Below are positions 23,758 through 44,250 of a stretch of DNA of 64,000 nt, piece after piece. The stretch is from NCBI RefSeq assembly GCF_001677475.2, contig NZ_CP015229.1. One strand, 5' to 3'. The stretch comes from Escherichia coli (GTDB lineage: Bacteria > Pseudomonadota > Gammaproteobacteria > Enterobacterales > Enterobacteriaceae). The position numbers were made by a program, and so were the translations under genes. Under the pieces are notes generated by a model. The model saw only the letters and a list, made by a program, of their open reading frames with translations. It was not told where the DNA came from and ran no database searches. The first letter of the stretch is position 1. Each line of letters starts with the position of its first letter.

Positions 23758-23769
23758 CACGCTACCGCC
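23758..23769 (-). promoter_or_regulatory. ops element (RfaH recruitment site) in the waaQ operon leader
   Basis: Minus strand reads GGCGGTAGCGTG, matching the ops consensus GGCGGTAGnnTG, about 50-85 nt upstream of the waaQ start. Confidence 0.8.
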
Positions 23770-24114
23770 CCAGGCTCAACAGCTACCCGAATACTGATAA
23801 CGCACTTACTTTGACGCGCTAGTGTATCATTTCTTTCGCAGCAATCCGACCCGAATGATTTTTATACACAAAATATGATTTAACCATAAAAATCATATAG
23901 ATAAAATTTTGCATACAGAGAATCCAGATATTGTCTATGTAAAGTTGCAATCCTGGCTGAAATTCAATGAATCGCATAAAAATACAAAAAAATGAAGATT
24001 TAGCAGCAGATCAGCTCAAACAGAGACTATTTAAGTCAAAAACGGGAAAAGTAATGGTAAAGCCACAGCTAAATACATAGAATCCCCAGCACATCCATAA
24101 GTCAGCTATTTACT

Positions 24115-34451: not shown

Positions 34452-36840
<2,389 letters not shown>

Positions 36841-36864
36841 GAATCGTCTTTATTGCAGTGAATC

Positions 36865-37629
<765 letters not shown>

Positions 37630-37683
37630 ACCTGATTTCAGTATCATGCCCAGTCATTTCTTCACCTGTGGAGCTTTTTAAGT

Positions 37684-37959
37684 ATGGCACGCGTAACTGT
37701 TCAGGACGCTGTAGAGAAAATTGGTAACCGTTTTGACCTGGTACTGGTCGCCGCGCGTCGCGCTCGTCAGATGCAGGTAGGCGGAAAGGATCCGCTGGTA
37801 CCGGAAGAAAACGATAAAACCACTGTAATCGCGCTGCGCGAAATCGAAGAAGGTCTGATCAACAACCAGATCCTCGACGTTCGCGAACGCCAGGAACAGC
37901 AAGAGCAGGAAGCCGCTGAATTACAAGCCGTTACCGCTATTGCTGAAGGTCGTCGTTAA
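37684..37959 (+). CDS. rpoZ: DNA-directed RNA polymerase subunit omega
   Basis: 91 aa; [29 protein letters not shown]. Confidence 0.95.
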
Positions 37960-37977
37960 TCACAAAGCGGGTCGCCC

Positions 37978-40086
37978 TTGTATCTGTTTGAAAGCCTGAA
38001 TCAACTGATTCAAACCTACCTGCCGGAAGACCAAATCAAGCGTCTGCGGCAGGCGTATCTCGTTGCACGTGATGCTCACGAGGGGCAAACACGTTCAAGC
38101 GGTGAACCCTATATCACGCACCCGGTGGCGGTTGCCTGCATTCTGGCCGAGATGAAACTCGACTATGAAACGCTAATGGCGGCACTGCTGCATGACGTGA
38201 TTGAAGATACTCCCGCCACCTACCAGGACATGGAACAGCTTTTTGGTAAAAGCGTCGCCGAGCTGGTAGAGGGGGTGTCGAAACTTGATAAGCTCAAGTT
38301 CCGCGATAAGAAAGAGGCGCAGGCCGAAAACTTTCGCAAGATGATTATGGCGATGGTGCAGGATATCCGCGTCATCCTCATCAAACTTGCCGACCGTACC
38401 CACAACATGCGCACGCTGGGCTCACTTCGCCCGGACAAACGCCGCCGCATCGCCCGTGAAACTCTCGAAATTTACAGCCCGCTGGCGCACCGTTTAGGTA
38501 TCCACCACATTAAAACCGAACTCGAAGAGCTGGGTTTTGAAGCGCTGTATCCCAACCGTTATCGCGTAATCAAAGAAGTGGTGAAAGCCGCGCGCGGCAA
38601 CCGTAAAGAGATGATCCAGAAGATTCTTTCTGAAATCGAAGGGCGTTTGCAGGAAGCGGGAATACCGTGCCGCGTCAGTGGTCGCGAAAAGCATCTTTAT
38701 TCGATTTACTGCAAAATGGTGCTCAAAGAGCAGCGTTTTCACTCAATCATGGACATCTACGCTTTCCGCGTGATCGTCAATGATTCTGACACCTGTTATC
38801 GCGTGCTGGGCCAGATGCACAGCCTGTACAAGCCGCGTCCGGGCCGCGTGAAAGACTATATCGCCATTCCAAAAGCGAACGGCTATCAGTCTTTGCACAC
38901 CTCGATGATTGGCCCGCACGGCGTGCCGGTTGAGGTCCAGATCCGTACCGAAGATATGGATCAGATGGCGGAGATGGGTGTTGCCGCGCACTGGGCTTAT
39001 AAAGAGCACGGCGAAACCAGTACTACCGCACAAATCCGCGCCCAGCGCTGGATGCAAAGCCTGCTGGAGCTGCAACAGAGTGCCGGTAGCTCGTTTGAAT
39101 TTATCGAGAGCGTTAAATCCGATCTCTTCCCGGATGAGATTTACGTTTTCACACCGGAAGGGCGAATTGTCGAACTGCCTGCCGGTGCAACGCCCGTCGA
39201 CTTCGCTTATGCGGTGCATACCGATATCGGTCATGCCTGCGTGGGCGCACGCGTCGACCGCCAGCCTTACCCGCTGTCGCAGCCGCTTACCAGCGGTCAA
39301 ACCGTTGAAATTATTACCGCACCGGGCGCTCGCCCGAATGCCGCTTGGCTGAACTTTGTCGTTAGCTCGAAAGCGCGCGCCAAAATTCGTCAATTGCTGA
39401 AAAACCTCAAGCGTGATGATTCTGTAAGCCTGGGCCGTCGTCTGCTCAACCATGCGTTGGGTGGCAGCCGCAAGCTCAATGAAATCCCGCAGGAAAATAT
39501 TCAGCGCGAGCTGGACCGCATGAAGCTGGCAACGCTTGACGATCTGCTGGCTGAAATCGGCCTTGGTAACGCAATGAGCGTGGTGGTCGCGAAAAATCTG
39601 CAACATGGGGACGCCTCCATTCCACCGGCAACCCAAAGTCACGGACATCTGCCCATTAAAGGTGCCGATGGCGTGCTGATCACCTTTGCGAAATGCTGTC
39701 GCCCTATTCCTGGCGACCCGATTATCGCCCACGTCAGCCCCGGTAAAGGTCTGGTGATCCACCATGAATCCTGCCGTAACATCCGTGGCTACCAGAAAGA
39801 GCCAGAGAAGTTTATGGCTGTGGAATGGGATAAAGAGACGGCGCAGGAGTTCATCACCGAAATCAAGGTGGAGATGTTCAATCATCAGGGCGCGCTGGCA
39901 AACCTAACAGCGGCAATTAACACCACCACCTCGAATATTCAAAGTTTGAATACGGAAGAGAAAGATGGTCGCGTCTACAGCGCCTTTATTCGTCTGACCG
40001 CCCGTGACCGTGTGCATCTGGCGAATATCATGCGCAAAATCCGCGTGATGCCAGACGTGATTAAAGTCACCCGAAACCGAAATTAA
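37978..40086 (+). CDS. spoT: bifunctional (p)ppGpp synthetase II / ppGpp pyrophosphohydrolase
   Basis: 702 aa from TTG start codon at 37978; HD hydrolase and RelA/SpoT synthetase domains, TGS and ACT regions. Confidence 0.95.
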   Translation: MYLFESLNQLIQTYLPEDQIKRLRQAYLVARDAHEGQTRSSGEPYITHPVAVACILAEMKLDYETLMAALLHDVIEDTPATYQDMEQLFGKSVAELVEGVSKLDKLKFRDKKEAQAENFRKMIMAMVQDIRVILIKLADRTHNMRTLGSLRPDKRRRIARETLEIYSPLAHRLGIHHIKTELEELGFEALYPNRYRVIKEVVKAARGNRKEMIQKILSEIEGRLQEAGIPCRVSGREKHLYSIYCKMVLKEQRFHSIMDIYAFRVIVNDSDTCYRVLGQMHSLYKPRPGRVKDYIAIPKANGYQSLHTSMIGPHGVPVEVQIRTEDMDQMAEMGVAAHWAYKEHGETSTTAQIRAQRWMQSLLELQQSAGSSFEFIESVKSDLFPDEIYVFTPEGRIVELPAGATPVDFAYAVHTDIGHACVGARVDRQPYPLSQPLTSGQTVEIITAPGARPNAAWLNFVVSSKARAKIRQLLKNLKRDDSVSLGRRLLNHALGGSRKLNEIPQENIQRELDRMKLATLDDLLAEIGLGNAMSVVVAKNLQHGDASIPPATQSHGHLPIKGADGVLITFAKCCRPIPGDPIIAHVSPGKGLVIHHESCRNIRGYQKEPEKFMAVEWDKETAQEFITEIKVEMFNHQGALANLTAAINTTTSNIQSLNTEEKDGRVYSAFIRLTARDRVHLANIMRKIRVMPDVIKVTRNRN

Positions 40087-40092
40087 TGTTTT

Positions 40093-40782
40093 ATGAACCC
40101 AACACGTTATGCACGTATCTGCGAAATGCTCGCCAGGCGGCAGCCTGATCTGACCGTCTGCATGGAGCAGGTCCACAAACCTCATAACGTTTCTGCGATT
40201 ATTCGTACCGCAGATGCCGTTGGCGTACATGAAGTTCATGCCGTCTGGCCTGGCAGCCGGATGCGCACCATGGCTTCGGCAGCTGCGGGTAGTAACAGCT
40301 GGGTACAGGTGAAAACGCACCGCACCATTGGCGATGCCGTCGCTCATCTGAAAGGCCAGGGCATGCAGATTCTGGCAACCCATCTTTCTGATAACGCTGT
40401 CGATTTCCGCGAAATTGATTACACTCGCCCGACCTGTATTTTGATGGGACAGGAGAAAACAGGCATCACGCAGGAAGCGTTGGCCCTGGCGGATCGGGAC
40501 ATCATCATTCCGATGATTGGCATGGTGCAATCGCTGAATGTTTCCGTTGCCTCAGCCCTCATTCTTTACGAAGCCCAGCGCCAGCGGCAAAATGCGGGCA
40601 TGTACCTGCGTGAAAACAGCATGTTGCCGGAAGCAGAGCAACAACGCCTGTTGTTTGAAGGCGGCTATCCGGTGCTGGCGAAAGTCGCAAAACGCAAAGG
40701 CCTGCCTTATCCCCACGTAAATCAGCAAGGCGAGATCGAAGCTGATGCCGACTGGTGGGCTACTATGCAGGCTGCAGGGTAA
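40093..40782 (+). CDS. trmH: tRNA (guanosine18-2'-O)-methyltransferase
   Basis: 229 aa SpoU-family methyltransferase; position after spoT. Confidence 0.92.
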   Translation: MNPTRYARICEMLARRQPDLTVCMEQVHKPHNVSAIIRTADAVGVHEVHAVWPGSRMRTMASAAAGSNSWVQVKTHRTIGDAVAHLKGQGMQILATHLSDNAVDFREIDYTRPTCILMGQEKTGITQEALALADRDIIIPMIGMVQSLNVSVASALILYEAQRQRQNAGMYLRENSMLPEAEQQRLLFEGGYPVLAKVAKRKGLPYPHVNQQGEIEADADWWATMQAAG

Positions 40783-40787
40783 GTGCC

Positions 40788-42869
40788 ATGAAAGGTCGCC
40801 TGTTAGATGCTGTCCCACTCAGTTCCCTAACGGGCGTTGGCGCAGCACTTAGTAACAAACTGGCGAAAATCAACCTGCATACCGTGCAGGATCTACTGTT
40901 ACACCTTCCCCTGCGCTACGAAGATCGCACCCATCTCTACCCCATCGGAGAACTACTGCCGGGCGTTTATGCCACGGTGGAAGGCGAAGTGCTGAACTGC
41001 AATATCTCCTTCGGCGGTCGGCGGATGATGACCTGCCAGATCAGCGACGGTTCCGGCATTCTCACCATGCGCTTTTTCAACTTCAACGCGGCAATGAAAA
41101 ATAGCCTGGCGACGGGCCGCCGTGTACTGGCCTATGGTGAAGCAAAGCGCGGTAAATATGGTGCGGAGATGATCCACCCGGAATACCGCGTGCAAGGCGA
41201 TCTCAGCACGCCAGAGTTACAGGAAACGCTCACGCCGGTTTACCCAACTACGGAAGGCGTAAAGCAGGCCACGCTGCGTAAATTAACCGACCAGGCGCTG
41301 GATCTGCTCGACACCTGCGCCATTGAAGAACTCCTGCCGCCGGAACTGTCACAAGGAATGATGACGCTGCCGGAAGCGTTGCGCACTTTGCACCGCCCGC
41401 CGCCGACGCTACAGCTTAGCGATCTGGAAACCGGCCAGCATCCGGCACAACGCCGTCTGATTCTGGAAGAACTGCTGGCGCACAACCTCAGCATGTTAGC
41501 CTTACGTGCCGGAGCACAGCGTTTTCATGCCCAGCCACTGAGCGCCAATGACGCGCTGAAAAATAAACTCCTCGCAGCCTTACCGTTCAAGCCAACGGGC
41601 GCACAGGCACGCGTAGTGGCGGAGATCGAGCGCGATATGGCGCTGGATGTGCCGATGATGCGCCTGGTACAGGGCGATGTAGGTTCCGGTAAAACGCTGG
41701 TCGCCGCCCTCGCCGCGCTGCGTGCGATTGCCCACGGCAAACAGGTGGCATTAATGGCACCAACCGAATTACTCGCCGAGCAGCACGCCAATAACTTCCG
41801 CAACTGGTTTGAACCGCTCGGTATCGAAGTGGGCTGGCTCGCCGGTAAGCAGAAAGGTAAAGCGCGACTGTCTCAGCAGGAAGCCATTGCCAGCGGTCAG
41901 GTGCAGATGATTGTTGGTACGCACGCCATCTTCCAGGAACAGGTGCAGTTTAACGGCCTGGCGCTGGTGATTATCGACGAACAGCATCGCTTTGGCGTGC
42001 ATCAGCGTCTGGCATTGTGGGAGAAAGGCCAGCAGCAAGGCTTCCATCCGCATCAGCTGATCATGACCGCGACACCCATCCCACGCACGTTGGCAATGAC
42101 CGCCTATGCCGACCTTGATACCTCGGTGATAGATGAACTGCCGCCAGGCCGCACGCCAGTGACTACGGTCGCTATTCCTGATACCCGCCGTACCGACATT
42201 ATTGACCGCGTGCGCCATGCCTGCATCACCGAAAAGCGTCAGGCGTACTGGGTGTGCACACTCATTGAAGAGTCAGAGTTACTGGAAGCGCAGGCAGCTG
42301 AAGCTACCTGGGAAGAGTTGAAACTGGCGCTACCAGAGTTGAATGTTGGCCTGGTACACGGACGGATGAAACCAGCCGAGAAACAGGCGGTGATGGCGTC
42401 GTTTAAACAAGGTGAACTACACCTGCTGGTTGCCACTACCGTTATTGAAGTCGGCGTTGATGTGCCTAACGCCAGTCTGATGATTATCGAAAACCCGGAG
42501 CGTCTGGGTCTGGCGCAGTTACACCAGCTGCGCGGGCGTGTAGGTCGTGGCGCGGTGGCTTCTCACTGCGTGCTGCTCTACAAAACACCGCTCTCTAAAA
42601 CGGCGCAAATTCGCCTGCAAGTGCTGCGCGACAGCAACGACGGGTTTGTGATTGCACAAAAAGATCTGGAGATTCGCGGCCCTGGCGAATTGTTAGGCAC
42701 TCGTCAGACGGGTAATGCTGAATTTAAAGTGGCGGATTTACTGCGCGATCAGGCGATGATCCCGGAAGTTCAGCGCCTGGCGCGACATATTCACGAACGT
42801 TACCCACAACAAGCAAAAGCCCTGATAGAACGCTGGATGCCAGAAACAGAACGTTACTCCAACGCGTAA
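40788..42869 (+). CDS. recG: ATP-dependent DNA helicase RecG
   Basis: True start at MKGRLLDAVPLSSLTGVGAALSNKLAKI; 693 aa; Walker A GDVGSGKT, DEQH box. Confidence 0.95.
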   Translation: MKGRLLDAVPLSSLTGVGAALSNKLAKINLHTVQDLLLHLPLRYEDRTHLYPIGELLPGVYATVEGEVLNCNISFGGRRMMTCQISDGSGILTMRFFNFNAAMKNSLATGRRVLAYGEAKRGKYGAEMIHPEYRVQGDLSTPELQETLTPVYPTTEGVKQATLRKLTDQALDLLDTCAIEELLPPELSQGMMTLPEALRTLHRPPPTLQLSDLETGQHPAQRRLILEELLAHNLSMLALRAGAQRFHAQPLSANDALKNKLLAALPFKPTGAQARVVAEIERDMALDVPMMRLVQGDVGSGKTLVAALAALRAIAHGKQVALMAPTELLAEQHANNFRNWFEPLGIEVGWLAGKQKGKARLSQQEAIASGQVQMIVGTHAIFQEQVQFNGLALVIIDEQHRFGVHQRLALWEKGQQQGFHPHQLIMTATPIPRTLAMTAYADLDTSVIDELPPGRTPVTTVAIPDTRRTDIIDRVRHACITEKRQAYWVCTLIEESELLEAQAAEATWEELKLALPELNVGLVHGRMKPAEKQAVMASFKQGELHLLVATTVIEVGVDVPNASLMIIENPERLGLAQLHQLRGRVGRGAVASHCVLLYKTPLSKTAQIRLQVLRDSNDGFVIAQKDLEIRGPGELLGTRQTGNAEFKVADLLRDQAMIPEVQRLARHIHERYPQQAKALIERWMPETERYSNA

Positions 42870-42969
42870 AAGACGGCGGTGAGAAGACCGCCGCTTCAGG
42901 TTGTTCTACCTTCCTGCCGGATGTGCTTCGTCCTACAAAAACTTATAAATTCAATAAATTGTGAATCAA

Positions 42970-43003
42970 TACGTAGGCTTGATAAGCGAAGCGTATCAGG
43001 CAT
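42970..43003. repeat. REP (repetitive extragenic palindromic) element
   Basis: Minus strand reads GCCTGATACGCTTCGCTTATCAAGCCTAC, matching the REP pattern GCC(T/G)GAT.CG...CTTATC.GGCCTAC, between convergent recG and gltS. Confidence 0.6.
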
Positions 43004-43044
43004 TTGTCTTTGTTGCGGCGGCACTTCTACCGCCGCTTCATCGG

Positions 43045-44250
43045 TTAACCCGCAAAAATCGGCAACATCAAATACAACTTAATTACCAGCGCGTTAACGA
43101 TATCGATAAAGAACGCACCGACCATCGGCACTACCAGGAAGGCCATGTGCGACGGGCCAAAACGTTCAGTGATCGCCTGCATGTTGGCGATTGCCGTTGG
43201 CGTTGCACCGAGGCCAAAACCACAGTGACCCGCAGCAAGCACTGCCGCATCGTAGTTTTTGCCCATCATGCGCCAGGTAACGAAGATGGCATACAACGCC
43301 ATGAAGATGGTCTGTACCACCAGAATCGCCAGCATCGGCAGCGCCAGCGAAGCCAGCTCCCACAGTTTCAGCCCCATCAGCGCCATCGCCAGGAACAACG
43401 ACAGGCTTACGTTACCCAGCACGGATACCGCACGCTCAAAGACGCGGTAAAAGCCCATCATTGACAGACCGTTGCTCAGAATCACGCCAACAAACAGTAC
43501 ACAGACGAAGGTCGGCAGTTCAAAAGCAGTGCCAGCCAAAAGTTGCGCAACAATTTTCCCCACCGTCAGGCAGATAGCAATCAGCGCGATAGTTTCAATC
43601 AGCACCAACGAGGTGATCATGCGGCCCACATCCGGCTTTTCGAACGCCGTCGGGACTTCCTGGTCATCCGGAATACCGTTCGGCGTGGTGGAGTGTTTCA
43701 CCAGATAGCGCGCCACCGGACCGCCAATCAAGCCGCCCAGCACCAAACCGAACGTTGCACAGGCCATCGCCACTTCCGTCGCATTGGTGAAGCCATAACG
43801 TTCAATGAACAATTTACTCCATGCAGCTCCCGTACCGTGACCGCCGGAAAGCGTAATAGAACCGGCCAGCAACCCCATCAGCGGATCAAGCCCTAACAGG
43901 CTAGCCATACCAATGCCAATGGCATTTTGCATCACCAACAGACCAACAACCACAATCAGGAAGATGCCAACCACACGCCCACCGGCACGCAAACTGGCAA
44001 TGTTGGCGTTCAGGCCAATGGTGGCGAAGAAAGCCAGCATTAACGGATCGCGTAGGGACATATCAAAGTTGACTTCCCAGCCCATGCTTTTTTTCAGTAC
44101 CAGTAGCGCCAGCGCCACCAACAAACCACCCGCAACAGGTTCCGGTATGGTGTATTTCTTCAAAAAGGAGACGGAATGGACCAACTTACGCCCGAGCAGC
44201 AACGTCAGCGTTGCGGCAACAAGCGTTGCTAAAGTATCGAGATGAAACAT
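43045..44250 (-). CDS. gltS: sodium/glutamate symporter
   Basis: 401 aa polytopic membrane protein; MFHLDTLATLVAATLTLLLGRKLV. Confidence 0.92.
   Translation of the reverse strand: MFHLDTLATLVAATLTLLLGRKLVHSVSFLKKYTIPEPVAGGLLVALALLVLKKSMGWEVNFDMSLRDPLMLAFFATIGLNANIASLRAGGRVVGIFLIVVVGLLVMQNAIGIGMASLLGLDPLMGLLAGSITLSGGHGTGAAWSKLFIERYGFTNATEVAMACATFGLVLGGLIGGPVARYLVKHSTTPNGIPDDQEVPTAFEKPDVGRMITSLVLIETIALIAICLTVGKIVAQLLAGTAFELPTFVCVLFVGVILSNGLSMMGFYRVFERAVSVLGNVSLSLFLAMALMGLKLWELASLALPMLAILVVQTIFMALYAIFVTWRMMGKNYDAAVLAAGHCGFGLGATPTAIANMQAITERFGPSHMAFLVVPMVGAFFIDIVNALVIKLYLMLPIFAG

Follow-up and report, generated by a model that had tools for sequence, protein, structure and literature searches.

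[quoted passage not shown] In E. coli, the starvation signal ppGpp is hydrolysed mainly by SpoT, which can also synthesise it. Through these two roles the amount of SpoT determines the basal ppGpp level, and with it growth rate, persistence, and survival of stress. A start codon which fixes or tunes SpoT relative to co-transcribed omega would be a real piece of ppGpp control.

The TTG has been described since spoT was sequenced; for E. coli K-12 it was reportedly given by Sarubbi et al. in 1989, in J Biol Chem 264:15074. Published accounts already cover the start, its phylogenetic conservation, and its assignment to the polyamine modulon on the ground that the codon initiates inefficiently. 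What is added here is quantitative comparative support, both for selection acting on the T of the start codon and for the reach of the non-AUG start, rather than new biology. Its practical use lies in correct annotation, as well as in cloning or expressing spoT where the gene's own initiation signals are to be kept.

The initiation codon and its reading frame

Read from the window sequence, the initiation codon of spoT is TTG at 37978-37980 on the plus strand, and the frame that it opens runs to 40086 (37978-40086, +; 702 aa). The gene follows rpoZ (37684-37959, +; 91 aa), whose TAA at 37957-37959 is separated from the TTG by a spacer of 18 nt, TCACAAAGCGGGTCGCCC (37960-37977, +). In the window both genes lie in a common frame, with only the TAA and six sense codons between them. 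Going back from the TTG, this TAA, at a distance of 21 nt, is the first stop met in frame, so a spoT start upstream of the TTG is impossible; none of the six codons from the rpoZ TAA to the TTG is ATG, GTG, or TTG. The TTG is the sole start-like codon from the in-frame stop to the conserved codon 2. Downstream, the canonical in-frame starts are a GTG at codon 50 (38125-38127, +) and then an ATG at codon 59 (38152-38154, +), both of which were rejected as starts. The arrangement is that of a UUG-start gene, in which conserved coding sequence sets in at the start codon and no in-frame alternative lies upstream.

The same TTG is annotated as the spoT start by NCBI PGAP in RefSeq E. coli genomes, and the protein is WP_000280488.1 in E. 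coli genomes identical or near-identical over the region. NZ_OZ547043 proved to be a better annotation proxy for the window than NZ_CP076709, which is collinear with it only around spoT and, owing to upstream indels, shows 31,023 mismatches when naively compared. Relative to E. coli K-12 spoT (b3650), we noted the same gene, 702-aa product, TTG 18 nt after rpoZ, and operon order, with nothing substantive that differs; the window's flanks are identical to no complete RefSeq genome. In Salmonella, a spoT primer designed from the start codon begins TTGTATCTG (PMC3938759). The N-terminus expected from the TTG would be (f)Met-Tyr-Leu-Phe-Glu-Ser, with (M)YLFESLNQLIQTYLPEDQIK as the predicted tryptic peptide. 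No entry for SpoT, b3650, or P0AG24 was found in the supplements of the TRAINSPOTTER N-terminomics and tetracycline-profiling studies (PMC13245402, PMC4909307).

Coordinates, RefSeq annotation, and comparative data together bear out the TTG start proposed in the initial annotation. Its description of a 702-aa frame lying 18 nt after the rpoZ stop agrees with the open reading frame and spacer read from the window, and its statement that no in-frame ATG lies near the N-terminus also holds, the first being codon 59. On this sequence evidence, the TTG at 37978 is the real start of spoT and not an accident of annotation.

Conservation of the initiation codon

The TTG is kept at the spoT start in all 80 of the Enterobacterales species compared. 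Elsewhere in the same gene, none of 189 four-fold degenerate sites is invariant in this order, and only one of the 26 four-fold sites with a majority T is without change to A or G. Within E. coli, the exact 30-mer centred on the TTG is present in 5419 of 5426 complete genomes, and the variants sampled carry changes at -1, +27, and +38 which leave the TTG untouched.

The first protein homologue search returned relatives all at ≥90% identity and added no phylogenetic depth; the deeper sampling consists of a representative search and contig look-ups, plus a DNA-pattern scan of metagenomes. Among 30 more distant gammaproteobacterial metagenomic contigs, at 59-85% identity, 29 have a TTG or GTG start (TTG 21, GTG 8, ATG 1), and the lineages with TTG include Photobacterium, Shewanella, and Aggregatibacter. 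Most of these contigs have an AGGTG-like Shine-Dalgarno sequence. Distant homologues share this start position and open with an M-x-x-F-x-x-L pattern; most of them have no in-frame alternative upstream. The comparisons indicate that the T of the TTG is under purifying selection throughout the Enterobacterales, with UUG or GUG used in most related Gammaproteobacteria. Of the SpoT homologues at ≤60% identity, four of eight start with ATG, three with GTG, and one with TTG; since ATG is common at this distance, the weak spoT start appears to be lineage-specific and not universal.

Shine-Dalgarno element and operon context

A Shine-Dalgarno-like element in the spacer, AAGCGGGT (37965-37972, +), ends 5 nt before the start codon, within the expected spacing of roughly 5-9 nt. 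Its predicted duplex with the anti-Shine-Dalgarno sequence of 16S rRNA has an energy of -5.4 kcal/mol, compared with -5.6 for rpoZ, and falls within the top ~9% of random window positions. Since spoT pairs no less strongly than rpoZ here, any attenuation of spoT would come mainly from the codon. Across the Enterobacterales the spacer is 17-25 nt long and variable in sequence, and a purine-rich GGG/AGG/GAG tract is kept at a fixed distance from the start.

The surrounding genes are co-oriented in the order gmk (37006-37629, +; annotated in collinear RefSeq genomes), rpoZ, spoT, trmH (spoU; 40093-40782, +), and recG (40788-42869, +), the first and last of the cluster being gmk and recG. The gaps between them are 54, 18, 6, and 5 nt, and a simple scan of the plus strand from 36600 to 43200 found no terminator-like sites. 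Gene order, short gaps, and the lack of an internal intrinsic terminator are those of the spo operon, so that the layout here fits both the initial annotation and the published five-gene gmk-rpoZ-spoT-trmH-recG operon (PMC3938759), for which co-transcription is also stated elsewhere (PMC7700224). A consensus scan located a sigma-70 promoter-like site within the 3' end of gmk, before rpoZ (TTGGCA, 18-nt spacer, TATCAT; 37618-37647, +; 10 of 12 matches), which suggests a candidate additional transcription start ahead of rpoZ; such sites numbered two in the scanned region against 4.4 expected from shuffles, which makes the match weak evidence alone.

Initiation efficiency and SpoT level

The gene is counted in the polyamine modulon for its 'inefficient initiation codon' UUG (PMC4405209, PMC7177335, PMC4191411). 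It is itself listed in class 2, that of inefficient UUG or GUG codons (cya, cra, frr, gshA, uvrY, and spoT), and SpoT has been grouped with the members whose Shine-Dalgarno sequence lies at a normal position (PMC7177335). Both marks of this class, a UUG or GUG start and a normally placed Shine-Dalgarno sequence, are found in the window's spoT. Polyamine stimulation of UUG-dependent fMet-tRNA binding and of UUG initiation is described in the secondary literature (PMC4405209, PMC7177335), where the stimulation of translation is also said to disappear once UUG is replaced by AUG (PMC4405209, PMC7177335, PMC4191411).

In vivo, UUG is in general the weaker start, as measured in other genes. In cyaA, expression from UUG, GUG, and AUG stands at 1:2:6 (PMC5499595), while lacZ with a UUG start falls 2- to 3-fold in vivo (PMC5499595) and a UUG to AUG change in gshA raises basal synthesis 3-fold (PMC4405209). 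UUG is about as active as AUG in vitro in an optimised initiation region at 20 to 40 °C (PMC5499595), and 'weak' is therefore a context-dependent term. [quoted passage not shown] Conservation of the UUG in spoT has been noted in print, where it was argued that the codon is kept for ppGpp robustness and not for low output (PMC5499595).

Two known systems offer comparisons. Like spoT, cyaA is headed by a conserved gammaproteobacterial UUG, and its product, also scarce, is an enzyme producing a signal of nutritional stress (PMC5499595); its codon swaps have been measured, with the ratios given above, whereas for spoT we infer the attenuation. The AUU of infC is likewise a non-AUG start which acts as a regulatory device and not a defect (PMC5499595), although it comes with a demonstrated IF3-discrimination feedback loop and the UUG of spoT does not.

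In the explanation that we favour, the UUG at 37978 would be read by initiator tRNA as fMet, the codon lying 5 nt past a moderate Shine-Dalgarno-like element and 18 nt past the rpoZ stop. The non-AUG codon would, as the most likely reason for its retention, keep SpoT synthesis much lower than that of omega, a product that the literature assigns to the same operon. SpoT is scarce, with a few hundred copies in a cell, and its hydrolysis and synthesis of ppGpp have to be kept in balance. A second likely benefit would be that SpoT synthesis responds to the condition of the initiation machinery, as in the polyamine stimulation of UUG. That the UUG lowers or tunes SpoT output is thus a reading drawn from the literature and from indirect reasoning, and on the same footing (the UUG class, scarce SpoT, the cyaA ratios, and conservation) the low-level translation of spoT within the operon suggested by the initial annotation is supported.

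Alternative explanations

An alternative would place the true start downstream, at the GTG of codon 50 or the ATG of codon 59, leaving the TTG as a chance first start-like triplet of an open frame. ATG is the commonest start codon, but the region so excluded has the character of a gene, and we consider a downstream start very unlikely. Over the 57 columns of codons 2-58, the numbers variable at codon positions 1, 2, and 3 in the 80 species are 16, 7, and 55, and amino-acid identity to the window is ≥90% in all 80; these codons evolve as translated coding sequence, under protein-level constraint. Pfam places HD_4 at residues 26-175 (E 7e-54), RelA_SpoT at 235-345, TGS at 388-447, RelA_AH_RIS at 459-541, and ACT_4 at 622-699, which gives the order HD, RelA_SpoT, TGS, and ACT of a long bifunctional RelA/SpoT homologue of the SpoT type. 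With HD_4 starting at residue 26 and HD at residue 45, and with solved Rel and SpoT structures aligning from residues 6-13 on, an ATG start would remove residues 26-58 from HD_4. By eye, the 20 nt preceding codon 50 and those preceding codon 59 hold no AGGAGG-like element, and in many lineages N-terminal conservation starts precisely at the TTG. Codon 2 is Tyr throughout (TAT in 65 species, TAC in 15), and because it is conserved at the protein level, initiation lies upstream of it; near-cognate CTG starts at codons 3, 7, or 10 are ruled out by the same conservation. The common frame of rpoZ and spoT in the window also brings into view an omega-SpoT fusion, made by ribosomes that read through the end of rpoZ. 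This frame is, however, not conserved: spacers of 17-25 nt break it in most lineages, and many species have extra in-frame stops, for example TAATTAA, or a TAG 6 nt upstream of the TTG. The comparative data effectively refute such a fusion, to which we attach next to no probability.

Two further readings accept the TTG as the start and differ on why it is kept. The UUG may be a robustness or regulatory device and not an attenuator, since of the non-AUG codons it would be the one that ppGpp, cold, and nutrient limitation affect least; SpoT could then go on being produced under the very stress that it handles. We hold this possibility only tentatively. In its favour, UUG mRNA was least affected by ppGpp and nutrient limitation, a result tied to UUG conservation in spoT and cyaA (PMC5499595); polyamine-dependent stimulation of UUG initiation, as cited above (PMC4405209, PMC7177335), and the use of TTG over GTG in the Enterobacterales (80/80) and most related lineages point the same way. 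In the same experiments, however, AUG was at least as ppGpp-robust as UUG (PMC5499595), so robustness alone fails to explain the avoidance of ATG, and GTG replaces TTG in 8 of the 30 distant contigs, which suggests that 'non-AUG' outweighs 'UUG' specifically. It is rather unlikely, in our estimation, that translational coupling accounts for the codon, with ribosomes that end at the rpoZ UAA re-initiating 18 nt downstream and the start codon mattering less. The stop-to-start distance is indeed short throughout (17-25 nt in the 80 species, and 18-20 nt in 69 of them), and rpoZ lies directly upstream of spoT in most of the more distant homologues too. Yet TTG or GTG is kept outside the Enterobacterales where the gap is 30-223 nt, and the conserved Shine-Dalgarno-like element at canonical spacing favours ordinary Shine-Dalgarno-directed initiation. 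Coupling is in any case compatible with attenuation by the UUG, and is not exclusive of it.

A more elaborate and, in our view, improbable proposal, built from sequence features, is that the UUG, the 17-25-nt spacer, and a predicted 6-bp hairpin over spoT codons 7-12 (UGAAUC / GAUUCA, nt +20 to +35; 37997-38012, +) form an Enterobacterales-specific module of translational control. The hairpin could, for example, keep a ribosome that re-initiates or binds weakly in place on the poor start codon, so that rpoZ translation together with the state of the initiation machinery (polyamines, IF2-ppGpp, and IF3), and not the codon alone, would set SpoT synthesis. If true, the module would form a feedback loop from the level of ppGpp to the production of SpoT, which itself makes and degrades ppGpp.

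Local RNA structure

Sequestration of the Shine-Dalgarno element and start codon in a hairpin was considered and rejected. Minimum-free-energy structures do pair AAGCGGGU with codons 2-4, but shuffled sequence is as structured as this region (z from -0.24 to +1.24), and the pairing partner changes between genera.

The +20 to +35 hairpin was not found in the sequences from outside the Enterobacterales. Across 71 distinct Enterobacterales sequences, 98.6% of its cells are paired. Two of its codons, 8 (AAT) and 11 (ATT), are among the only four invariant codons in 202 two-fold/Ile columns, and one of its pairs (21-34) covaries between G-C and C-G.

Placement of the spoT start

The 702-codon spoT frame opens at a TTG codon (37978-37980) and ends at 40086. 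It lies behind an 18-nt spacer, TCACAAAGCGGGTCGCCC (37960-37977), which follows the TAA (37957-37959) of rpoZ (37684-37959). Both the start and its distance from rpoZ had been proposed in the initial annotation, as had the lack of an in-frame ATG near the N-terminus; the first canonical in-frame starts 3' of the TTG are a GTG at codon 50 (38125) and an ATG at codon 59 (38152). The PGAP (NCBI) annotation of spoT in RefSeq E. coli genomes uses the same TTG, and the surrounding 801 bases are present at ≥95% identity in 5424 of 5426 complete RefSeq E. coli genomes, reaching 100% in one or several. The gene is E. coli spoT, whose UUG start has long been known: the TTG is explicitly stated in the literature (PMC7593582), appears in a published spoT primer (PMC3938759), and its conservation across phylogeny has been noted in print (PMC5499595).

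The proposed gmk-rpoZ-spoT-trmH-recG order likewise holds. From gmk (37006-37629, placed by RefSeq annotation of collinear genomes) through rpoZ, spoT and trmH (40093-40782) to recG (40788-42869), the annotated genes are separated by 54, 18, 6, and 5 nt, the distal genes being packed very tightly. A mechanically called recG frame opens at a GTG (40755) that still lies within the 3' end of trmH, while the RefSeq start is the ATG at 40788. Inside the 3' end of gmk, a consensus scan found a promoter-like TTGGCA and TATCAT separated by 18 nt (37618-37647, 10/12 matches); this predicted promoter would give rpoZ-spoT-trmH-recG its own transcription start besides read-through from gmk.

Evidence for initiation at TTG

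Four independent lines of comparative evidence agree in indicating that the TTG is the true spoT start. In an alignment of 80 Enterobacterales species, retrieved using the SpoT protein, variable columns within codons 2-58 fall at 55/57 third, 16/57 first, and 7/57 second positions, and amino-acid identity to the window over these codons is at least 90% in every species. Codons 2-58 are therefore translated, which places initiation upstream of codon 2. Reading upstream from spoT, the first in-frame stop is the rpoZ TAA, since the two genes share one reading frame in the window (37684-40086). The six sense codons between this stop and the TTG include no ATG, GTG, or TTG, leaving the TTG as sole candidate.

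Protein architecture is in keeping with this placement. Pfam HD_4 and HD matches begin at residues 26 and 45, and alignments to solved Rel and SpoT structures begin at residues 6-13; a start at Met59 would cost SpoT part of its hydrolase domain. A Shine-Dalgarno-like AAGCGGGT lies 5 nt before the TTG, with a predicted anti-Shine-Dalgarno (16S rRNA) duplex of -5.4 kcal/mol, comparable to that of rpoZ (-5.6) and within the top ~9% of positions drawn at random from the window. More distant SpoT homologues share the start position and a common M-x-x-F-x-x-L N-terminus, most having no other in-frame start upstream, and an AGGTG-like element precedes the start in most metagenome contigs at 59-85% identity. 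As no direct SpoT record was found in the proteomic and initiation-profiling supplements of the published studies searched, the N-terminus is established here comparatively rather than experimentally.

Two metagenome contigs (L109 and L190; 72-80% identity to SpoT, N-terminus LYLF[ED]DLKTLLSSY) carry an in-frame ATG 24 nt upstream of the conserved TTG, with the end of rpoZ 130 nt away. In this lineage the real start could be the upstream ATG, adding an 8-residue extension.

The common frame raises the possibility of an omega-SpoT readthrough fusion. This was excluded because frame sharing is not conserved elsewhere (spacers of 17-25 nt) and extra in-frame stops are frequent in other species; the shared frame is accordingly coincidental. 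Minimum-free-energy folds also show a hairpin that would mask the start and its Shine-Dalgarno element; this idea was likewise dropped, the initiation region being no more structured than shuffled sequence (z-scores -0.24 to +1.24).

Selection on the start codon

At position 1 of the start codon, A or G in place of T would leave the protein unchanged, which makes this position comparable to a synonymous site. All 80 Enterobacterales species have T there. In that alignment all 189 four-fold degenerate sites vary, and only one of 26 sites with majority T is without change to A or G; the spacer upstream varies in both sequence and length (17-25 nt). Low divergence by itself thus does not account for the TTG invariance. 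In 5419 of 5426 complete E. coli genomes, the 30-mer with the TTG at its centre is present without any change, and sampled variant alleles (changes at 37977, 38004, and 38015) keep the TTG.

Scanning metagenome contigs with a DNA pattern for the conserved ARDAHEGQxRSSGEPYI yielded 120 loci. Those at ≥87% identity all start with TTG, as do the 80 species, with no GTG or ATG in either set. The 30 contigs at 59-85% identity divide into 21 TTG, 8 GTG, and one ATG. A separate set of eight representative SpoT homologues at ≤60% comprises one TTG, three GTG, and four ATG. Exact-protein cluster look-ups identified three TTG lineages as Photobacterium, Shewanella, and Aggregatibacter, and placed the sole ATG lineage among the 59-85% contigs with Actinobacillus delphinicola. 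By these counts, the non-AUG start is an old, selectively maintained trait of enteric, vibrio, pasteurella, and shewanella Gammaproteobacteria, and is not universal in the SpoT family.

Approximately 3% of E. coli genes start with UUG, according to the literature. Across a collinear, annotated ~49-kb E. coli stretch (L214), 45 intact genes comprise 40 with ATG, three with GTG (rfaJ, rfaQ, and radC), and two with TTG, the only one besides spoT being yibQ (L214:4899-5858; ~4.9-5.9 kb in the window).

Possible roles of UUG

The initiator tRNA would decode the spoT UUG as fMet. In most cases AUG outperforms UUG as a start in vivo: cyaA expression with UUG, GUG, and AUG stands at 1:2:6, and lacZ falls 2- to 3-fold with UUG (PMC5499595), while basal gshA synthesis rises 3-fold once its UUG is replaced by AUG (PMC4405209). 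Jointly, the three codons range over 10-100% of AUG activity in the cited literature. SpoT is scarce, at approximately hundreds of copies per cell (PMC8600398) and roughly one-tenth of Rsd (PMC6055147). The spoT message would be shared with rpoZ. As the spoT Shine-Dalgarno pairing is not weak, the start codon is the obvious place for SpoT output to be restrained. From this literature and the selection signal we infer that UUG restrains or tunes SpoT output. The low-level translation suggested in the initial annotation is supported by the UUG literature and SpoT scarcity, as one of two published readings.

The other, a competing emphasis, holds that UUG is kept for a regulatory or robustness role, besides or instead of simple attenuation. 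In vitro, ppGpp, cold, and poor medium affected UUG less than the other non-AUG codons, behaviour which the authors link to the conservation of UUG in spoT and cyaA (PMC5499595). The Igarashi laboratory places spoT in the polyamine modulon owing to its inefficient UUG, polyamines raising UUG-dependent fMet-tRNA binding (PMC4405209, PMC7177335, PMC4191411). Coupling of spoT translation to that of rpoZ is plausible given the short, bounded spacer (17-25 nt); however, beyond Enterobacterales the two genes lie 30-223 nt apart and TTG or GTG is still kept.

A hairpin in the early coding region

A 6-bp hairpin (UGAAUC/GAUUCA) is predicted at 37997-38012 (nt +20 to +35), spanning codons 7-12 (CUG AAU CAA CUG AUU CAA). 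Standard pairs fill 98.6% of its pair cells across 71 distinct Enterobacterales sequences. Only pair 21-34 covaries, switching from G-C to C-G in Erwiniaceae, probably in a single evolutionary event. The mutually paired codons 8 (AAT) and 11 (ATT) belong to a group of just four that never vary among 202 columns (two-fold or Ile codons with a fixed amino acid, whole gene). Selection on the RNA of the initiation region may underlie these patterns, or the hairpin may be a by-product of the self-complementary LNQ-LIQ peptide and the usual A/T-rich 5' codon preference. Among the homologues compared, it is absent from Vibrionaceae, Shewanella, and most Pasteurellaceae.

Other features of the window

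The rpoZ-spoT junction (37600-38400) reaches 100% identity in several strains, against a best identity of 98.3-98.7% for the waa-to-ligB stretch (12000-36900). No complete RefSeq E. coli genome is identical over the whole window, which would represent either a lineage outside the compared genomes or a mosaic. The segment 51700-64000 is ≥80% covered in only 716 of 5424 genomes (best identity 97.3%). There, tRNA-Sec (selC, 51807-51901) is followed by setC-yicL-nlpA-yicS and then by frames (56384-63346) annotated in related genomes as a SycD/LcrH chaperone, translocon and tip proteins (SipB/YopB-like and IpaD/SipD-like, respectively), and the HilA-like regulator EilA. Upstream of rfaQ, on the minus strand, a full-length Rfam JUMPstart (23758-23796; 53 bits, gathering threshold 35) heads the K-12-type LPS core (waa) cluster, an expected and known feature.
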